This document shows positions 2,492 through 59,525 of a stretch of 64,000 nt of DNA, piece by piece; position 1 is the first letter of the stretch, and every line of letters starts with the position of its first letter. The notes under the pieces are model-generated. The model was not told where the DNA came from. It saw only the letters and a list, made by a program, of their open reading frames with translations, and made no database searches. Position numbers and translations under genes: made by a program. Location: positions 143,344,001 to 143,408,000 of the forward strand of contig OX597817.1 in assembly GCA_951406725.2 (NCBI GenBank). The letters are read 5' to 3'. This DNA comes from Octopus vulgaris (taxonomy: Eukaryota).

Positions 2492-4544
2492 TATCATTAT
2501 GAACCAATAGCATTATCACAGCAGAACAAGAAGCTGGGATGAAGGGAGTTTAGGGATAAGCTGAGCAAGTATCAACCAACAAAACTGTGATGTCAAAGGT
2601 GCGAGAGCATAGGAGGAACCTAGTTTCAATGTGGCTAGACTCCAAGAAAGCCTTTGACTCTGTTCCTCACTAATGGATGCTAGACGTTCCAGTGAGAATA
2701 GTCAAAGCCATAGCTGACTTGACTTCATCGTGGGCCACCGTCTTGAATTAGACACAAAGAGTGACTGTATTATCACCGATAGAACACAATATCGCCAAGG
2801 CATATTCCAAGGAGACAGCCTCTTTGTGATGTTGTTTATACTTTCTGTGAACCCCTTGTCATTCATGTCAAGGAAGTCTGAAGGGTATATCACTGGTTCA
2901 CAAGGAAACAGAAATACTGATATAACACACTGATTCTTTGTGGATGACTTCAAACTTTATGCCACGTGATGAAAAAGGGCCTTGACCTTGTTACAACATT
3001 CTCAAAGGATGTAGGGTTGGAGTTTGGTCAGGATAAATGTTGTTATATTGTTGTGAAAAGGGGGAAAAGTATAAACCAGACTAATAACATCTCCATCAAT
3101 GATTCCCCTTATCTGACGAGGAATGTTACAGGTATCTAGGAGTGGATGAAAATATATCTTACAATGGCACCTGTAACAAAATACGTGTCACTAAAGAATA
3201 TTACAGCCGAATAAAGAATATTTGGACCTCAGAACTCTCTGCATGCAATAAAACAGTGGCCCAGAATGTGTTTGCAGTGCCAGTACTCATACCAACATTT
3301 GGGCTGCGTGATTGCACGCTTGATTAGATCCGAGCCATTGATGTGAAAACCCCAAAAAAATACTAACAAATACATATAATTTCCACATAAACCGTGATGT
3401 AGACCGCCTCTACCTTATACGGAAACAAATGTCGTATCATATCCTTTCGGCAACAGCTTTTAACCACAAAGCATGGAAGTGCATCCCTTGACCAAGTTTG
3501 CATACATGAGGCTGATAACATCATAAGACTTGGAAGGAAGCTCCTTGAGCAATACTCTTTGTCTAGAATGCATGCCCAAAGAAGTCGTACGATTCTACCG
3601 CAACGTATCATCAGATAAAAAGATGAGCAGAAGACTATGCATTGATATGTTAGTGGAAAGATCCGAGATGATAGTAACATCGATCATCAAAGCAGTCTAT
3701 CATGGACGAATAGCCGGATTATTACCTCCCACTTTGAAGGGTATGTGTTTGCAATCCAGGAGCAGGAAATAGCAACCAAGTGCCTGAAGCACAAAAGGGG
3801 TAGAGATGCAAGAAAAGCAGTAAAATGTGACAACCGATGAAGACTTTGTGGAATTCAAACTGAAGATATCACCGACATCATAAACAGTTGTCCGAAAATG
3901 TCATCACGGTATTATCTGCCGATGAGACATGACGTTGTAGCTAGGATACTCTATAATGAAATCCGTCGGAAGGATAATCCTGAGGACAAAGAAATAAAAT
4001 CCCACAGTATAGTAGAAGCCATAGCCACTCATAATGAAAAGGAATACTGGTGGAATGTACCAGTGAAGACCTCAATAAAATGTAGACACAACTGACCTGA
4101 TATAATGATTTGGGATAAAGAAGAGAAACTGTTCACAGTTGTGGAAATTAGCTGCCCAGTGAATGTTAATATAAGGCTGAGGATCAGTGAAAAAGAGAAC
4201 ACCTAAGTTGAACTATTTAGAAATCTACAGTTACTCTATCCAGATTACAACTTCAGGTTTATACCTGTAATTATTGGGGCCCTGGAATACGTAACACCCT
4301 GTCTAAATATCAATCTGGAGAAATTAGGCTTCTCAAAACCAGAAAGGAGAAAGCTAATTCGAAGACTACAGATCCAATCCATCACTGCAACTGTAAAAAT
4401 CTGTAAAACTTTCCAGAAGTTTATCATTTAAATATATATGAGTATGCCTAGATATGCAACTATATCTACATACAAATCTGCACATACATACATACATACA
4501 TACATACATACATACATACATACATACATACATACATACATACA

Positions 4545-4888: not shown

Positions 4889-5239
4889 GTGGTATGATAC
4901 ACTTATAGTGTGACTGGCACTACAGCACTAAGTAAAATAATGATGCTTGCGAGGAGAAAATGTTTACGGAGATGAACTAACTGAAGATGTCTACTCACAC
5001 TATTGTAGATGAAACTGTCAGCTGCTTTACCATAGTCCCAACCACAGCATTCCAAACACCTGAAACAGAACAATACAAACAACCTATTTTTATTTCTATT
5101 ACCATTACTAGCGGCGGTACCCAGAGTTTCCTAGGTTTGTAAAAATTATAAGAAAATATCACATTGCTTACGCTCTTTTGTTTTAAATGATGCGTCTCTG
5201 ATGAAAATTTCTAATTCCTCGATACAAAACTGAGTTCTA

Positions 5240-10212: not shown

Positions 10213-10904
10213 CATATATATCGAACTCCCTCCTTCAAAAACACCAACCACAAAAGAGCTGTCATTGAAAAGGTAATAACATTGGCGGTGTCTTAGCATG
10301 GCCACAGCCTTTGGACTGAAACGCATAAAAGAATAAAAGAATACCATTAAAATTCCCCACTTAAAAGTCAGATCTTCAAAAGGTTAGTGCACGGTTTCAA
10401 AATCTACAGACGATAGAAAAAAAATTTTTTCCTCCATTGAAATCTGTATTTCTAAAATCTTCAAAGTTCAAGCTCACTAAATCGAACTGTAAACTTATCT
10501 AATGTTTGAATTGAGCAAAATCCCTGAATATCTTCGAAGTATTAACAGATTTAAGCGTGAAACAACAAAAGTATCGATTATTTTCTACCTTCCGTTCCAT
10601 GTTGAAACCTTGCACTGACTTTTTGAATATATTTTTTTGTTTAAGTGCGTAAGTTTTAATAAGGACAGCGTTGCGGTGCATACTGCATGTATATTTTGTG
10701 TGAGATATATTTTGTCCTGGTATTCAGCTTTTACGTGTTTCTCTCACTGAGCGACGGCCAGGCTGGAGCATCACCTTGAAAGGTTTAGTCGAACAAATCG
10801 ATCGACTACATATATATATATATTAACCCATTCATGCCGATCGTCCGTTTAAACTGACACTTAATTTATAAGGGTATAAAACAAGTACGTGATACGAATT
10901 GTGA

Positions 10905-11618
10905 TCTGGCAGAATCGTTAGCACGCCGGACAAAATGCTTTGCGGCATTTCGTCAGTTCTGAGTTCAAATTCCGTCGAGGTCGACTTTGCCTTTCATCCT
11001 TTCAGGGTCGATAAATTAAGTACCAGTTACACACTGGGGTCGATGTAATCGACTTAATCCGTTTGTCTATCCTTGTTTGTGCACTCTGTGTTTAGCCCCT
11101 TCTGGGTAGTAAAGAAATAGGTATTTCGTCTGCCGCTACGTTCTGAGTTCAAATTCCGCCGAGGTCGACTTTGCCTCTCATCCTTTCGTGGTCGATAAAT
11201 TAAGTACCAGTTACGCACTGGGGTCGATGCAATCGACTTAATCCGTTTGTCTATCCTTGTTTGTCCACTCTGTGTTTAGCCTCTTCTGGGTAGTAAAGAA
11301 ATAGGTATTTCGTCTGCCGCTACGTTCTGAGTTCAAATTCCACCGAGGTCGACTTTGCCTCTCATCCTTTCGTGGTCGATAAATTAAGTACCAGTTGCGT
11401 ACTGGGGTCGATGTAATCGACTTAATCCGTTTGTCTGTCCTTGTCTGTCCACTCTGTGTTTAGTCCCTTGTGAGCAGTAAAGAAATAGGTATTTCGTCTG
11501 TCTTTACGTTCTGAGTTCAAATTCCGCCGAGGTCGATAAATTAAGTACCAGTGGCGTACTTAATCGACTGGCCCCCTCCCCAAAAATTTCAAGCCTTGTG
11601 CCAAGTGTAGAAAAGAGT
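10905..11618 (+). mobile_element. Head-to-tail array of four SINE A units
   Basis: ~185 bp unit; junctions aaagaaata|ggtatttcg near 11119, 11303 and 11487. Confidence 0.9.
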
Positions 11619-13097: not shown

Positions 13098-13170
13098 CCA
13101 TATGGCGTAATGGTTAAGAGCACAGGCTACTAATCCTAAGATTCCGAGTTCGATTCCAGGCAGTGACCTG
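13098..13170 (+). mobile_element. tRNA-Arg-like Pol III head followed by (AAT)n
   Basis: A-box tggcgtaatgg, B-box gagttcgattcc; resembles tRNA-Arg(ACG); second copy at ~50540-50612 on the minus strand. Confidence 0.65.
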
Positions 13171-13192
13171 AATAATAATAATAATAATAATG

Positions 13193-13236
<44 letters not shown>

Positions 13237-13243
13237 CATAATC

Positions 13244-13280
<37 letters not shown>

Positions 13281-13282
<2 letters not shown>

Positions 13283-24399: not shown

Positions 24400-25290
24400 A
24401 TAATTAAAGACCTACCTGTAATTAAAGAAACTACCTGTACCTATGATTATAGGCCTATTGGTAGTTAAAAAGCCACCTGCCCTTAAACAGTGACCTGTAA
24501 TTAAAAACCTACCTGTATCTATGATTATAGGTCTATTGGTAGTTAAAGACCAACCTGTAATTAAAAACCTAGCTTAATTAAAAGGCTACCTGTAATTAAT
24601 GCCCAACGTGTAAAGACCTACCTTTAATTAAACACCTTTATGAAGTAAAACATATATATTATACACCTACCTGTACTTAAGCGCCTAACTATAATTAAAC
24701 AGTAAAGCGAGTCGCCACATCAAAGTGGCGGTTAAATGTTACTATTAGTTGAACCCCAGACAGATTCTCTGTCTGCTGGTTTTCGGTGCAACACTCTGCA
24801 GCCTTTGTATACAATATATTGCTAGCGGTGGTGGGGAGCGAACCCTTACATCCTCCAGCAGCTAACAGGGTTGCTTACAATATATCGCAAGCAGAAGCGG
24901 ATCTTACCTATCACTCCAGTGCGCAGATGCACGCGGCTGAAGACGAACCAAACAGCTCGAAACTGGGTCAGCCTTGCGATCCTGTTAACTGCTGGAGGGT
25001 AGTAGGGGTTCGTCCCCCACCAACCCAACCATCTCCCGCTAGCCATATATATTGTATATAAAAGATGCTGAACGTTGCACCGAAAACCAGCTGGTGGAGA
25101 ATCTGCCTGGGGTTAAACTAGTAGTAACATTTACCTGCCACTTTGATGTGGTAACTCGCTTTACTGTTTAGTATACGTAACTACTCTATCACTTATTGAG
25201 ATTTTATAACTATCTACTTCGCTTATAATTAAACACTTATCTGTAATTAAACGCCTACCTGTAATTAAACACCTCCCGTTAATTAAAATG
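24400..25290. repeat. ~17 bp degenerate repeat array (taattaaagacctacctg) split by a fold-back insertion
   Basis: Units at 24400-24695 and 25220-25290; one inverted unit near 26300-26325; resembles MITE subterminal repeats. Confidence 0.7.
24696..25170. mobile_element. Long fold-back element with an HHR-like motif in the loop
   Basis: Arms ~24696-24876 and ~24975-25170; loop contains CTGAAGAc gaac-caaaca-gctc GAAAC tgg GTC at 24937-24969. Confidence 0.75.
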
Positions 25291-30591: not shown

Positions 30592-31812
30592 CATTGTTCA
30601 GTTTTATTTCAAGAGCAGGCTGCCAAAAGAGAAAGAGTCGGTTTCTAACCTAGATCCAAGGCTCCTTCTTTAGAATTTCAACATCAACAACAGGGTATTT
30701 TTGCTTGTATGTATGTATGTATGTATGTATGTATGTATGTATGTATGTATGTATGTATGTATGTATGTGTTTTTATGCATATAGTCACACATCTAAACAT
30801 GCTCATACATATTTAAATGATAAACTTCTGGAACGTTTTACAGATTTTTACAGTTCCACTGATTGATTGGATCTGTAGATTTCGAATTAGCTTTCTCCTT
30901 TCTGATTTTGAGAAGCCTAATTTCTCAAGATTGGTATTTATGCAGTGTGTTACATATCTCAGGGCCCCAATAATTACAGGTATAAGCCTGAACTTATAAT
31001 CTCGGTAGAGTAACTTCAGATTTCTCAATAGTTCAGCGTAGGTGTTCGCTTTTAACTAATCTTCAGTTTTATTTTAACATCCGCTGGACAACTAATTTCC
31101 ACAACTGTGCACAGTTTCTCTTCTCTATCCCAAATCATTATATCAGGTCTGTTGTGCTTACATTTTATTGAGGTTTTCACTGGTACATTCCACCAGTATT
31201 CCTTTTTATTATGAGTGGCTATGGCTTCTACCATATTGTGGGTTTTTATTTCTTTGTCCTCAGGATTATCCTTCCGACGGATTTCATTATAGAGTGTCCT
31301 AGCTACAACGTCATGTCTCATCGGTAGATAATACCGTGATGACATTTTCGGACAACTGCTTATGATGATGTGGAGTGATATCTTCGGTTTTAACTGCATA
31401 ATGTCTGCATCGGTTGTCACGTTTCACGGCTTTTCCTGCATCTCTATCCCTTTTCTGCATCAGGTACTTGGTTGATATTTCCTGTTCTTGGATGGCAAAC
31501 GCAAACCCTACAAAATGGGTGGTAGTAATCCGGCTATTCGTCCATAATAAACTGCTTTGATGATCGATGTTACTATCATGTCTGAACTTTCTACTAGCAT
31601 ATCCATGCGTAGTCTTCTGCTCATATAAGCTCATCCTTTCATCTGATGATACGCTGCGGTAGAGTCGTGCGACTTCTTTGGGCATGTATTCGAGGTTATC
31701 AGATAAGGAATGTTGCTCAAGGAGCTGCCTTCCAAGTCTTATAATGTTATCAGCTTCATGCATGCAAACTTGGTCAAGGGATGCACTTCGACACTTGGTG
31801 GTTAAAAGATGT
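30592..31812 (-). mobile_element. 5'-truncated R4/Dong-like LINE, (CATA)n family
   Basis: Homologous to 3450-4650; 3'UTR duplicated at 30172-30286; (TATG)n on both sides. Confidence 0.88.
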
Positions 31813-33008: not shown

Positions 33009-33435
33009 TATATACGTACGTACGTACGCACATTCGTACGCACGTACGTACTTACGTACGTGCGTACGGATGAACGGACGGACGCACGGACAGAGAGAAC
33101 GAAAGAACGAATGAAATGTAAGCAAAAGATATTGAGGTTTTCGAACGCTGTCAGTATACTAGTCTCTAGTACCTCACCACTAACTACGATGCAGATGTCA
33201 TGTGGTCAGAATGGAAGATAATAAGATCCCTAAGCAATTTCTGTATGGGTAACAGAAGTTGCTTAGGGATCTTAATGATTGCATCAAGAATAGGGTAAAG
33301 AAAATCAAAAGTCTAGAAAATGAATGAGAAAAACTTGCCCTGGATTCGTTCATCGTGGAGTAAAGCAATCCATGATCACATAATAGATTACATTAGCATG
33401 ACAGAATTGTTAGTACGCCGGACAAAACGCTTAGC

Positions 33436-33642
33436 TGGCAGAAACGTTAGCACGCCGGGCGAAATGCGTAGCCGCTACGTTCTGAGTTCAAATTCCGCCG
33501 AGGTCGACTTTGCCTTTCATCCTTTCGGGGTCGATTAAATAAGTACCAGTTACGCACTGGGGTCGATATAATCGACTTAATCCGTTTGTCTGTCCTTGTT
33601 TGTCCCCTCTGTGTTTAGCCCCTTGTGGGCAGTAAAGAAATA
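33436..33642 (+). mobile_element. SINE A (tail-2) inserted into an older SINE A
   Basis: Empty site cttagc|ggtatttcaacc present in the paralogue at 32804/32805. Confidence 0.85.
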
Positions 33643-33887
33643 GGTATTTCAACCGTCTTTACGTTCGGAGTTCAAATATTGGTGAAGTCGACTTTGCCTT
33701 TTTGTTTTTGGGGGTTCAATAGAATAAATATCACTCGGACTCCAGGGTCAATGTAGTCGAGAGAACGCCTTCCCCAAGTGTTCATGCCTTGTGCCTATAG
33801 CAGAAGGAATTGTGGTTATTATTGTTAGTGTTCATTGTTTACATTATTAACATTATTTACATTATTGTTAGTGTTGTTGCTTAATTA

Positions 33888-34472
33888 AGGCGGCGAGCTG
33901 GCAGAAATGTTAGCACGCCGGGTGAAATGCGTAGCCGTATTTCGTCTGCCGTTATGTTCTGAGTTCAAATTCCGCCGAGGTCAACTTTGCCTTTCATCCT
34001 TTCGGGGTCGATAAATTAAGTACCAGTTACGCACTGGGGTCGAAATATAATCGACATAATCCGTTTGTCTGTCCTTATTTGTCCTCTCTGTGTTTAGCCC
34101 CTTGTGGGTAGTAAAGAAATAGGTATTTCGTCTGCCGTTACGTTCTGAGTTCAAATTCCGCCGAGGTCGACTTTGCCTTTCATCTTTTCAGGGTCGATAA
34201 ATTAAGTACCAGTTACGCACTGGGGTCGATATAATCGACTTAATCCGTTTGTCTGTCCTTGTTCGTCCCCTCTGTGTTTAGCCCCTTGTGGGTAGTAAAC
34301 AAATAGGTATTTCGTCCGTCTTTATGTTCTGAATTCAAATTCCGCCGAGGTCGACTTTGCCTTTCATCCTTTTGGGGTCAATAATTTACATACCAGTGAA
34401 ACACTGGGGTAGATGTAATCGACTAGTCCCCTCCCTCCAAATTTCAAGCCTTGTGCCGATTGCATAAAGGAT
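33888..34472 (+). mobile_element. Head-to-tail array of three SINE A units
   Basis: Junctions aaata|ggtatttcg near 34121 and 34304. Confidence 0.88.
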
Positions 34473-34496
34473 TATTATTATTATTATTATTATTAC

Positions 34497-34549
<53 letters not shown>

Positions 34550-36540: not shown

Positions 36541-37149
36541 GAAACAAGAAGACAAAAACATCGTCAAATTTAGCCTGAACACACTGTATATTCTAACAAA
36601 AAAACTTGTTTCATCCTTGTTAGAAACCAACTCTTTTGTCAACAAAAACTTCAAATAATTATTCTTTGTAAGCTACTTATTCTATAGACTCTTTTGAACA
36701 TACATACGGGGACGTACATACATACATACATACATACATACATACATACATACATACATGCATACATACATACATACGCACGGCTTCTTTTCACCGTCTA
36801 CCAAATCCACTCACAAGGCATTGGTCGACCCGGGGCATAGCATAAGACATGCCCAAGATTCCACGCTGTGGGACTGAACCGGAACCATAGTGGTTGGTTA
36901 GCAAGCTACTTACCACACAGCCACTCCTGCGCCTACTGTATATTCTAACAAAAAAAACTTTGTATCCTTGTTAGAAACCAACTCTTTTGCAACAAAAAAC
37001 TTCAAATAATTAAAAACTAAAAGAGAACATACATACGTACATACATACATACATACATACACGCATGTGCACACACACACACACATACATACATACATAC
37101 ATACATACATACATACATACATACATACATACATACATACATACATACA

Positions 37150-38230
37150 TAACATCTGTTAACCACCAAGTGTCGAAGTGCATCCCTTGACCAAGTTTGC
37201 ATACATGAGGCTGATAACATCATAAGACTTGGAAGGCAGCTCCTTGAGCAGCATTCTTCGTCTGATAACCTGGAATGCATACCCAAAGAAATCGCACGAT
37301 TCTACTGCAACTTTTCATCAGATGAAAGGAAGAGCCTATATGAGCAGAAGACTATGTATAGGTATGTTAGTAGAAAGCTCCGAGATGATAGTAACATCGA
37401 TCATCAAAGCAGTTTATCATGGACGAATAGCCGGAATATTACCTCCCACTTTGAAGGGTATGCGTTTGCAATCCAGGAGCAGGAAATATCAACCAAGTAC
37501 CTGAAGCACAAAGGGGATAGAGATGCAAGAAAAGCAGTAAAATGGGACAACCGATGCAGACTTTGTGGAGTTCAAACTGAAGATATCACCCACATCATAA
37601 ACAATTGTCCGAAAATGTCATCACGGTATTATCTACCGATGAGACATGACGTTGTAACTAGGACACTCTATAATGAAATCCGTCGGGATGATAACTCCGA
37701 GAACAAAGAAATAAAAACCCACAATATGGTAAAAGCCATAGCCACTTATAATAAAAAGGAATACTGGTGGAATTTCTAAGTGAAGACCCCAATAAAATGT
37801 AAACACAGCAGACCTTATATAATGATTTGGGATAGAGAAGAGAAATTGTTCACAGTTGTGGAATTTAGCTGTGCAGCGGATGTTAACATAAAGCTGATGA
37901 TCAGTGAAAAAGAAAACACCTAAGTTGAACTATTGAGAAATCTACAGTTACTCTATCCAGATTACAAGTTCAGGTTGATGTCTGTAATTATTGGGGCCCT
38001 GGGCTATGTAACACCCTGCCGAAATATCAATCTGGGGAAATTGGGCTTCTCAAAACCAGAAAAGGGAAAGCTAATTTAAAGGCTACAGATCCAATCCATC
38101 ACTGGAACTGTAAAATTCTGTATAGAAATCCAGAAGTTTACCATTTAAATATATATGAGCATGTCTAGACATGTAACTATATGCATGAGAATACATACAT
38201 AGAGCAAAACATACAAATCTACACATACAT
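37150..38230 (+). mobile_element. 5'-truncated R4/Dong-like LINE, (CATA)n family
   Basis: FAIQEQEI; CRLCGVQTEDITHIINNCPKMSSRYYLPMRHD; (CATA)n on both sides. Confidence 0.88.
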
Positions 38231-44750: not shown

Positions 44751-46979
44751 AATAATTACCAGTTATGCACAGGGCTTGATATAATCGACTTAATCCATTT
44801 GTCTGTCCTTGTTTGTCCCCTCAGTGTGTAGCCCCTTGTGAGCAGTAAAGAAATAAGAAACGTTAGCACACCGGGCGAAATGCTTAGCAGTATTTCATGT
44901 GTCTTTACGTTCTGGGTTCAAATTCCGTCAATATATTAAGTACCAGTTTGCATAATGGAGTCGATTTAATCGATTGGCCCCTTCCCCCAAAAAATTTTGG
45001 ACCTTGTGCCAAGGGTAGAAAAGAATATTTGTATGGGAAGAATGCGTGTGAGAGTGCATGTGTGCACATAAATTTGCATATTTATTTCAAAGATGAAGAA
45101 AAACAGGAGAAAGATAAAAGAGTATTATTTATTTTTTCTTTTTTTTTGTGTGATTTTATTTTCTTTTTTTTTTGTCTTTGGCAAATCTGTTTTCCTGTAC
45201 AGCAATTCCACTGAAAATATCTCAAAGAATTCAAAACAAGAGTTTGATATCAATCTTTTCCAGCAGACAATCAGCCTTTTCCAGCCACTCAAACAGAAGT
45301 ATGTGGTCCAGACACACCCAAGCATTCTCATTCATTCTTAAATATACTTAGATTACATATTTCCCTACATACAATCCAATCTTAAGTAGATCAGGTCATA
45401 TCCATTTCCAAAGAAATAATCAGATTAAAATATAATATAGATACATTAACATTGAGTCATTTCTTGTACGTAATCCTAAAGCAAGAAGCTCGTTCAGACA
45501 ATGAAGACTATAATAAGATTTGGTTTAAATAACAAAGAGATAAAGAAGGATATTATGTTAGAGGATTGCTTTATGTAACTTAAACAGCTGATATCATAGC
45601 AATGGAAGCAGGATTTTCCTTCTGCTATCTTCTCTTATTTGCTTCAATCATCGGCCTGTGGCCATGCTGGTGCAATGCCCTGAAATGTTTTAATTGAATA
45701 AATCAACACTGATTCTTTTTATTTTTATATAAGGGGGTGTTGAGAAGGGCGGAGGTAAAAGACATGGACATGGTCTGCACCCCATTTCGGTTTTTTTCTT
45801 GTGAATGGATATGATAGATGGAAACTGAAAGAAGCCCACCATATCATTATCATCATTGTTGTCGTCATTTAACGTCCGTTGTCCATACTGTCATGGGTTG
45901 GATGGTTTGACCAGGGCTGGTAAGCTGGAAGACTGCACCATGCTCCAGTTTGATTTGGCAAGGTTTTCTATGGCTGGATGCCCTTCCTGACACCAACCAC
46001 TCCAAGAGTGTATTGGGTGTTTTTACATGCCACCGGCACAGGTGCCACAACTACAATTTCACTTGACTTCACGAGTTTTCTGTTCAAGCACAACATAATA
46101 CCAAAAGTCTCAGCCATTTGTCATTGCCTATGTGTATGTATGTAGGTGTGTGTGTGTGTGTGTGTTTGTGTCTGTGTGTGTGATTGTGTGTATGTGTGTC
46201 TGTCTGTGTGTGTGTTTGTGTGTCTGTCTGTCTGTGTGTTTGTATGTCAGTCTGTGTGTTTGTCCCCACCAACACTTGACAGCTGGTGTTGGTGTGTTTA
46301 CATCATTGTAACTTAGCAGTTTGGCAAAAGAGACCGATAGAAAATGTAACAGGCTTAAAAAACCATATGAACTGAGGCTGACTCATTTTGCTAAAATTCC
46401 TGAAGGCAGTGCCCCAACATGGTCACTATCTAATCACTAAAACAAGTTAAATATATTATAATATATGATAATTTATCAAACGTTAAGAAACAATATTCCT
46501 CTTTGTTCAACAGAATCAATTCATGTTTTACAGCAAACAAATATAATGGCACTAATTAAATTAGTATGCTGCTAAGTAACTAATTAATTAGTACACCAAG
46601 ATCACATTCTTTTCTGAAAGAATTCTATTCATTTATATCATCATCATCATTTTAACATTCACTTTCCATGCAGGCATGTGTCAGACAGAATTTGTTGAGG
46701 CAGAGCTGGCAGAATCATTAGCATACCAGGCGAAATGCTTAGCGGTATTTCGTCTGTCTTTACGTTCTGAGTTCAAATTACGCGGAGGTCGACTTTGCCT
46801 TTCATCCTTTCAGGGTCGATAAATTAAGTACCAGTTACGCACTGGGGTCAATATAATCGACTTAATCCATTTGTCTGTCCTTGTTTGTCTTCTCTATGTT
46901 TAGCCCCTTGTGGGTAGTAAAGAAATAGGTATTTCGTCTGCCGTTACGTTCTGAGTTCAAATTCAACCGAGATCGACTT

Positions 46980-48362: not shown

Positions 48363-49000
48363 AGGTGGCAAGCTGGCAAAATCGTTAGCATGCCGGGCAA
48401 AGTGCTTAGTGGTATTTCATCTGCCGTTACATTCTGAGTTCAAATTCTGCCGAGGTCGACTTTGCCTTTCATCCTTTCGGGGTCGATAAATTAAGTACCA
48501 GTTACGCACTGGGGTCGATGTAGTTGACTTAATCCCTTTGTTTGTCCCCTCTATGTTTAACTCCTTGTGGGCAGTAAAGAAATAAGAAACGTTAGCACAC
48601 TGGGTGAAATGCTTAACCGTATTTCGCCCGTCGCCACATTCTGAGTTCAAATTCCGCTGAGGTTGACTTTGTCTGTTCATCCTCTCAGGGTCAATAAATT
48701 AAGGGCCAATCTAATTGACTGGACACCGCCCCAAAAATTTTGGGCTTTGTGCCTAGAGTAGAAAAGAATATTTTAGGTTCATAAGGCAGCAAGTTGGCAG
48801 AAATGTTAGCATACCAGGCGAAATGCATAGCAGTATTTCGTCTGCCGTTACGTTCTGAGTTCAAATTCCGCTGAGGTCGACTTTGCCTGTTCATCCTTTC
48901 AGGGTCAATAAATTAAGAACCAGATGTGTACTGGGGTTGATCTCATCAACTGGACCCTTCCCCAAAAATTTCAGGCCTTGTGCCTAGAATAGAAAAGAAT
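48363..49000 (+). mobile_element. Cluster of three SINE A copies
   Basis: Junction aaagaaata|agaaacgttagc near 48583; CpG-decayed. Confidence 0.85.
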
Positions 49001-50334: not shown

Positions 50335-51050
50335 AATTGTACAGTTCTGTATTTAAGAGATGAGGAATTATTTACATTATTTACATTTGTCCCCATCTTG
50401 CTTGTTGTTAATACGTTTCAGCTGATATACCCTCCAGCCTTCATTAGGTGCCTTGGGGAAATTTTGAACATTGGTTCTCATTCCTAAGGTAGTTTTCGAT
50501 GTTGATTTTGTTGTTGCTGTTACTATTACTATTATTATTCAGGTCACTGCCCAGAATTGAACTCAGAATCTTGGTGTTAGTAGCTCGTGCTCTTAACCAT
50601 TACGCCATATCCCCGTGGGCAATTATGGAGTGAATTTTAGGGCTTATAAATCAAATATTCTCCTATCCCTTAATACCGGTTCCCATATGCAGCTTATATC
50701 TGCACCCGGTCTGCTTAGGAGGTTGTTGTGTCCTAGCATATGTGCTGCTTCTTTTAGTTTTCATATTTTCCAGTGGTGTTCTCTGTCTATTATTTTAACT
50801 TCATCCCACAAGGGGAGGTGGTCTCCATTTTTCCATACATGATCAGCTATACCCTATCTATCAATATCTCCCTGTGTCACAGCTTTGTGATGTTCCTCTA
50901 CCCTTATTTTGAGGGGGCGGCATGTTTCGCCTTTGTATAACCTACCACAGCCGCATGGGATGGAGTACACGCAGTTCTTAGTCATATTCTCTTCTATTGG
51001 TGGTTTTATTCGAAGGAGATATTTGCGAAGTGTTGTATTACTCTTGAACC
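50335..51050 (-). mobile_element. Penelope-like element 3' end: GIY-YIG endonuclease, tRNA-like segment and HHR
   Basis: NCVYSIPCGCGRLYKGETCRPLKIRVEEH..IADHVW..LKEAAH; tRNA-like ~50612-50545; CTAATGA a ggctg..cagct GAAAC at 50447-50415. Confidence 0.85.
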
Positions 51051-59119: not shown

Positions 59120-59525
59120 TTCCTTTTATTCTTTTGTTTTAGTCATTTGACTGCAGCCATGCTGGAGCACCACCTTTAGTCAAAGAAATTGACCCCAGGA
59201 TTTATTCTTTTCAAGTCTAGTACTTATTCTATCAGTCTCTTTTGCTGAACTGCTAAGTTTCAGGGACATAAACATACCAACATTGGTTGTCAAGTGATGG
59301 CAAGGGGACAAACAGACACAATATATATATATCATCATCATCGTTTAACGTCCGCTTTCCATATACACGACAGGTTTCTTTCAGTTTCCATCTACCAAAT
59401 CCACTCACAAGGCTTTGGTCAGCTCAAGGCTATAGTAGAAGACACTTGCCCAAGGTGCCACATAGTGGGACTGAACCTGGAACCATGTGGTTGGGAAGCA
59501 AGCTTCTTACCACACAGCCACACTT
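59120..59525 (-). mobile_element. SINE family B
   Basis: Reverse-complement match, CpG-decayed. Confidence 0.8.

Follow-up and report, generated by a model that had tools for sequence, protein, structure and literature searches.

Does a tRNA-like segment lying between a Penelope endonuclease frame and a hammerhead motif belong to the retroelement that carries it and, if so, what might it do there? The question is raised by a locus in the 64,000-nt stretch of Octopus vulgaris DNA analysed here (the window), where a decayed, 5'-truncated copy of a Penelope-like element (PLE) runs on the minus strand from 51048 to 50340 in the order GIY-YIG end, tRNA-Arg(ACG)-derived head, (AAT)n, minimal hammerhead and tail. 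A sequence-only reading of the window had named these parts, and all of them lie on that strand at the place it gave. The 3' end of the Penelope ORF, encoding the GIY-YIG endonuclease, occupies 50644..51048; it is truncated at 51048, carries two in-frame stops and a 5-nt deletion near its end, and reaches the family stop codon at 50646-50644. The relative P0046 matches this frame in tblastn (E 2e-55), and the copy is 95% identical to the family ruler across 430 nt. A 29-nt 3' spacer follows (50615..50643), whose last bases, GCCC-AC, fold with the opening bases of the head into a small hairpin (family form GCCC-AC-GGGC); in short copies, inversions by fold-back centre on this spacer. The head itself is 75 nt long (50540..50614, with G1 at 50614), forms the 5' edge of the pLTR and is a predicted type-2 Pol III promoter, with an A box, TGGCGTAATGG, at 50607-50597 and a B box, GTTCAATTC, at 50562-50554. 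Next comes an (AAT/AAC)n linker within the pLTR (50501..50539), which varies in length among copies and is a target for other repeats. An ATG at 50479..50481 opens, in the family ruler, an 835-aa frame that passes through the hammerhead into the ORF, and is the predicted start codon when the repeat stands upstream of the ORF. The minimal type I hammerhead (50408..50452) is followed by a terminal segment with the tail (50340..50407). The copy ends at 50340, where homology to other copies ceases, and this is the distal of two 3'-end sites used in the family. Another high-copy short repeat starts 5 nt beyond (50335-50200, minus strand) and recurs near 59134, 7413, 14163, 47715, 10142, 24359 and 12920.

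The head is derived from a tRNA and is no longer one. Among nine tRNA types compared, it aligns best with tRNA-Arg(ACG) of the same genome (score 70.5, z 9.2; about 52 of 75 positions agree, as counted by eye from the alignment), and Arg(TCG) and Arg(TCT) come next. The A and B boxes are kept, while the acceptor stem and the fold are lost: the stem cannot pair, and the folding z of about -0.3 is no better than that of shuffled sequences. Given this loss, the head is not a tRNA. The cloverleaf with acceptor stem of a functional tRNA gene was found neither by alignment nor by folding, ARAGORN called no tRNA in the window, and the 147 Rfam matches in the window at E<=1 include neither the head nor the hammerhead. 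The same Rfam scan gave a weak U6atac match at 36552-36649 (minus strand; 26.2 bits, E 0.019, under the gathering score of 33), which is probably due to chance. Elsewhere in the genome, about 25 matches to a tRNA-Arg(NCG) motif, most of them ACG and in part spaced at ~206 bp, are densely clustered at G000:C2:211887730-211907123. The octopus SINEs OR1 and OR2 are other repeats with tRNA-Arg-derived heads.

An A/B-box pattern, scanned over both strands of the 64 kb, matches only the head at 50614-50540 and a second site at 13103-13156. The latter belongs to a second head of the same family on the plus strand (13099..13170), which begins at +4, has no ORF upstream and matches the family ruler over 93 nt at 92% identity. 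It runs into an (AAT)n array of ~37 triplets (13171..13281), and from 13282 into an unrelated repeat of ~520 bp; no hammerhead was found downstream in the window. The tRNA head with (AAT)n reported to stand alone at 13098-13170 is thus present, but it offers no evidence for a SINE, because it is interrupted by another repeat. The ~520-bp repeat (13282-~13800, plus strand) also follows (AAT)n arrays at L062, L089, L103, L156 and L170 with ~90% identity, sits in such arrays at unrelated loci too, and appears to target them. The window contains a further repeat with a B-box-like motif and a period of 184 bp, both tandem and dispersed (10859-11534, 33382-34528, 46667-46974 and 48368-48922).

The sequence-only reading held that the head is part of the terminal repeat of the element. 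Were it instead a one-off SINE insertion into a single Penelope copy, an idea that draws on nothing beyond the look of one locus, other copies would lack it. A search of the genome (2.8 Gb) with a 401-nt stretch returned 7,405 first-look candidates, of which 40 were scored and 30 examined; all 30 align across head, (AAT)n and hammerhead, having been picked for that similarity. Copies were therefore re-selected by the ORF alone. Among 30 RT-selected loci, 24 reach the GIY-YIG end, and of these 22 carry the head, one carries part of it (L061) and one is broken off earlier (L042). Among 27 protein-selected loci (seven at the same places as RT-selected ones), the head is present in 24, two keep remnants (L189 and L225) and one is broken off earlier (L193). 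An ORF joined to the hammerhead without the head was not seen in either set (30 RT-selected and 27 protein-selected loci), and the junction of ORF and head is spanned by contigs of four runs (labelled organisms A, C, D and E). The tRNA head is family-wide, its physical link to a Penelope ORF holds, and the one-off insertion is refuted.

Loci selected by the ORF start (30) have the pLTR repeat on the upstream side of the ORF too. The whole unit of 2,655 nt consists of head, (AAT)n, hammerhead and an ORF encoding RT and GIY-YIG (~835 aa), with the head repeated after the ORF. In the family majority the 835-aa frame is a single ORF with YVDD and a C-terminus of GIY-YIG type. It is 72% identical to P0046 over 790 aa, and this similarity begins inside the piece that had been described as a terminal segment; the piece is there, but it is the start of the ORF and codes for part of its N-terminus. 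Relatives of the ORF carry PF00078 and PF26215; six short decayed ORF fragments gave no Pfam family with a profile library that does not contain PF26215. Frame length is kept in six of nine upstream pLTRs; of the 41 non-modal length variants, 23 are multiples of 3, a pattern that slippage of a triplet repeat could also yield. The pLTRs occur as partial tandems, copies are 5'-truncated and an inverted 5' copy was found, as in other PLEs; by these features the element is an EN+ PLE. Its placement in the Penelope/Poseidon clade, made by domain order, is tentative. In one full-length copy (L048/L153, G000:C2, near 109997500), a 27-nt segment at the pLTR-ORF junction is repeated about four times.

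In some other PLEs the promoter of the pLTR overlaps a spliceosomal intron (excerpts of PMC8557442). Among the splice joints listed (15 of 99), at a depth of only ~2-20 reads over the ORF, there was no GT..AG joint in the octopus pLTR, whose frame is open and homologous to P0046 across the candidate splice acceptor. An intron of 38 or 98 nt ending at TATAG was dropped as a candidate because that homology spans the site. As to sister families, genome searches with P0017 and P0001 apparently gave only the head-bearing family (60-72% identity; 27 of 27 loci checked), and a metagenome scan gave no related locus among 126 pattern matches. Related PLE proteins (P0001-P0088) are present in ENA and Logan records, with 57-68% identity over the RT fragment searched, and are apparently missing from the octopus genome.

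The hammerhead of the window copy is not representative of the family. Its core, at 50447-50441, reads CTAATGA, with the G5A change noted earlier, and is accompanied by a 3-nt deletion at the cleavage site. Family hammerheads were collected with a pattern requiring stem II and the 5' flank, so that very decayed copies are excluded from the 139 distinct copies obtained: CTGATGA occurs in 88, CTGAAGA in 22 and CTAATGA in 5. The core is CUGA(U/A)GA in 110 of 139, which bears out the expectation of a CUGAUGA consensus, and GAAA is present in 106 of 139, with CGTTGTGTT commonest (47/139). The family form, GACAC-CUGAUGA-A-GGCUG..CAGCC-GAAAC-GUU-GUGUU, has the features of a minimal type I hammerhead, namely the CUGANGA and GAAA core, an extra base after A9, G10.1-C11.1, a palindromic 15.2-16.2, an NUH site and stem I. 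G5A is decay of the window copy and not a feature of the family, and, as judged from its core and stem I, the hammerhead in this copy is likely to be dead. Hammerhead-core-like CTGAnGA...GAAA motifs also occur in a 318-nt repeat with three copies (3876-4193, 31050-31367 and 37593-37910) and at 4981-5014 (plus), 24937-24962 (plus) and 58520-58489 (minus); these may be other ribozyme-bearing repeats, or chance.

The positions at which copies begin were analysed in 60 loci chosen by the head alone. In 55 of them homology is lost at about -9 to +5 of G1, and five extend 35-1421 nt into the ORF; because the loci were picked by similarity to the whole head, junctions inside it are under-counted. Genome-wide, exact 22-mers have 2,931 sites inside the head versus 922 just 40 nt upstream. 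Corrected for exact-match rates (14/52 and 23/52, or 9/22 and 8/22), these become ~7,000-11,000 copies at the head versus 2,100-2,500 upstream, a 3-5-fold step over ~65 nt. ORF truncations, by contrast, are scattered over 61-1259 nt. Five full-length copies among the 30 loci selected by the ORF start contain the whole upstream head; three of these have their 5' ends at -2, -2 and +3/+4, and the other two extend to -62 and -182. The 3' ends are bimodal, at about +241 (31 of 45) and at +268 to +278 (12 of 45); the ~30 nt between the clusters correspond to the 30-40 nt tail that PLEs have at one end, and in Poseidon this tail marks two RT start sites (excerpts of PMC11167929). No 5'-end peak was seen at the hammerhead cut site (+188) among the 30 ORF-start loci, in agreement with lizard Poseidon, for which uncleaved RNA is the main substrate in vitro (excerpts of PMC11167929).

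With thousands of copies starting at the head, the element is likely to be transcribed by Pol III, an enzyme generally credited with short non-coding RNAs only. The reading preferred here, with a probability of roughly 0.55, is that the tRNA-Arg-derived head of the pLTR serves as an internal Pol III promoter that sets the 5' end of the element RNA. The 5' junctions of short copies would then map the RNA start, since an RT starting internally would run off the RNA 5' end. There is a quite different way to obtain a 5' end at this place, in which the head is a tRNA-like processing signal and the 5' end arises by RNase P cleavage, at G1, of a longer transcript made by Pol II. Nine of 60 junctions do lie exactly at G1 without upstream match; however, most 5' junctions retain two bases upstream of G1, and an acceptor stem that cannot pair, no ARAGORN call and the folding z given above speak against recognition as a tRNA, so that this route is very improbable.

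The 5' pile-up also coincides with the hairpin, and positions -3 to -7 are not assignable to template versus palindrome. Palindromic arms of at least 8 nt centred on the GCCC-AC-GGGC loop are present in 19 of 60 head-selected copies. Among 30 copies with arms of at least 4 nt, the loop is AC in 19 and flipped GT in 6. GT in place of AC was recorded in L099, L110, L113, L116, L123, L128, L130, L145 and L150, like the flip/flop ends produced by hairpin opening. The ORF-head junction itself resembles the relic of a fold-back. Both the long arms and this junction would suit an explanation in which the head is a passenger, that is, a SINE or tRNA fragment captured once in a master pLTR, with the RNA made by Pol II or by read-through and the pile-up produced by snap-back of the cDNA at GCCC-AC-GGGC. 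Two full-length copies begin at -2 without an arm, however, as do about a quarter of the short copies at +1 to +5, and a hairpin of 4-5 bp with a 2-nt loop is presumably weak. The pile-up is moreover located where a type-2 promoter would be expected to start, and the boxes have been kept. A passenger head is rather unlikely.

On the sense strand of the 2,655-nt unit there are no runs of T>=4, versus 4.7 expected under base shuffling (P 0.008), and none in the ORF, versus 2.9 expected under synonymous shuffling (P 0.025). The statistics are modest, a point in favour of a passenger head: P is 0.047 on a shorter ORF and 0.08 under a first-order Markov null, and G4 runs are absent as well (P 0.033 by base shuffle, 0.29 by synonymous shuffle). 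A control PLE family from the same genome has 10 TTTT runs in its ORF versus 11.0 expected, and this difference from the TTTT-free unit counts against a passenger; the control is a single family from another PLE lineage, represented by the majority of 11 of 30 loci. One control copy (L233), scanned to ~350 nt past the ORF, has no tRNA head, and a type I hammerhead core was not found in the copy scanned. The control (L127:2213-2600 and L228-L257) is a very young second Penelope-like family, with copies 99% identical and an 811-aa frame within the span examined. Among 134 variants at a frequency of at least 15% in the head-bearing family, none creates TTTT, a count of little power given 56 one-step sites and neutral copies. 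The TTTT comparison is suggestive of Pol III, not decisive. Three RNA runs from one study, of each of which ~6% was examined, resemble read-through: depth is equal in both directions, 87-88% of reads continue into unlike sequence, and neither a pile-up of read ends nor a transcript start was seen, which would suit a passenger head. Contig depth rises at the head, by a measure that cannot rank parts of the element.

The sequence-only reading went further and proposed a SINE-like derivative, and suggested counting copies with and without upstream GIY-YIG. Copies without the ORF are indeed the majority (short versus ORF-linked, ~3-5 to 1), and the hammerhead body lies downstream of the head in 53 of 60 head-selected loci. 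Both facts would be expected if Pol III transcribed the short head-hammerhead-tail units and the Penelope protein mobilised them again as a SINE family, for which the head has the customary tRNA origin with A and B boxes. The nine copies with a GT loop, some without a long opposite arm, likewise do not follow from simple truncation of the ORF-linked form; GT loops would, however, also be expected from opening of the hairpin on the other side. When 55 short copies were compared with 69 ORF-linked ones, a set that is small beside the several thousand present, nothing pointed to an independent lineage that has source genes of its own. Both classes show a pair of master variants (+64 G/A; core T/A) in the same proportions and linkage, and, apart from a single variant that the choice of query explains, no non-CpG variant tells the classes apart; the way in which the short set was selected accounts for the CpG differences in the head and for a further one at +42. 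Non-CpG divergence is 4.9% for short and 4.3% for ORF-linked copies, so that the short ones are not younger. They have no 3' tail of simple repeats or poly(A): their 3' ends lie within the ORF start, and (AAT)n is internal. For lizard Poseidon, a template has to extend to +172, while RT starts at 111-118 (excerpts of PMC11167929); the octopus short copies, which stop at the inferred RT start sites, would be missing the part of the template that lies downstream. Spread as a SINE is thus improbable, and the proposal was not supported: internal RT initiation (excerpts of PMC11167929) accounts for the short copies, so that no SINE stage is needed. Run-off cDNA synthesis after internal initiation is the likely source of the short copies, which are likely dead ends rather than a separate SINE lineage.

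Under the preferred Pol III reading, transcription would start 2-7 nt upstream of the head in the upstream pLTR, and the polymerase would encounter no TTTT terminator across the unit. RT would begin within the RNA, ~125 or 155 nt into the ORF, as it does in vitro for lizard Poseidon, copy back through the uncleaved hammerhead and run off the RNA 5' end, which would account for the short copies that span head to tail, of which there are thousands. Fold-back of the cDNA end at GCCC-AC-GGGC then likely primes the second strand, and palindromic arms around an AC or a flipped GT loop would remain. RT starting in the downstream pLTR would instead give ORF-bearing copies such as that of the window. 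Pol III RNA is uncapped, and the protein may derive from rarer Pol II read-through. Pol III is also described as weakly processive (excerpts of PMC10886601); this, the missing cap and the intron-overlapping pLTR promoters of other PLEs count against the preferred reading. A bolder version can be put forward tentatively, at less than even odds: an autonomous coding retrotransposon would have switched to Pol III, with a captured tRNA promoter driving the 2.65-kb unit, a coding strand purged of TTTT, an uncapped RNA serving as both message and template, and a terminal hairpin self-priming the second strand.

Several known elements share parts of this architecture. Poseidon of Anolis carolinensis likewise has a single ORF with RT and, at its C-terminus, GIY-YIG, a pLTR overlapping the ORF start and a hammerhead at that start, and it has two 3' ends ~30 nt apart (the tail) and no ends at the hammerhead cut site; in contrast, the excerpts of that report mention no tRNA-like head or Pol III promoter, and the start codon lies inside the hammerhead core, whereas that inferred for the octopus element is ~35 nt upstream of it (PMC11167929). 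The minimal type I hammerheads of PLE pLTRs share the extra base between 9 and 10.1, G10.1-C11.1, the palindromic 15.2-16.2 and an almost absent helix III, as in the dimer type (excerpts of PMC4209133); the main text of that paper contains neither 'tRNA' nor 'Pol III'. TRIMp3 elements (Cassandra, Helenus and Ajax) also have a Pol III promoter derived from a small RNA within a retroelement terminal repeat (excerpts of PMC10886601). However, they are short non-autonomous LTR elements, whereas the octopus head belongs to a protein-coding PLE, and its repeat flanks an RT/GIY-YIG ORF instead of forming a short non-coding LTR element. Schistosome Sm-alpha and Sj-alpha unite tRNA-related repeats and hammerheads in one family, but this is described as SINE-like, with no RT/GIY-YIG ORF attached (excerpts of PMC2770079). 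Mollusc SINEs have heads of tRNA-Arg origin with A and B boxes; these lead into SINE bodies and LINE-type tails, while the octopus heads lead into the pLTR of the PLE itself in 53 of 60 loci (excerpts of PMC4758252). Titles and abstract openings in the literature searched described no PLE whose pLTR has a tRNA head or Pol III promoter; Repbase, Dfam and the repeat library of PMC13282606, outside that scope, may already hold a consensus.

The retroelements with which Pol III promoters are associated are short non-autonomous passengers such as SINEs and TRIMp3. According to a 2024 paper, whose excerpts do not mention Penelope, Pol II is obligatory for the autonomous partners of TRIMp3 (PMC10886601). 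If the preferred reading is true, a tRNA promoter running a coding element of 2.65 kb would counter that expectation, and one would have to ask how translation of an uncapped RNA comes about. Whatever the polymerase, the run-off copies, thousands in number, locate the 5' end of a PLE RNA, and they reveal fold-back centred on a hairpin, with flipped loops. Second-strand synthesis of PLEs is listed as not yet validated (excerpts of PMC11167929), and the flipped-loop fold-back provides a testable handle on it.
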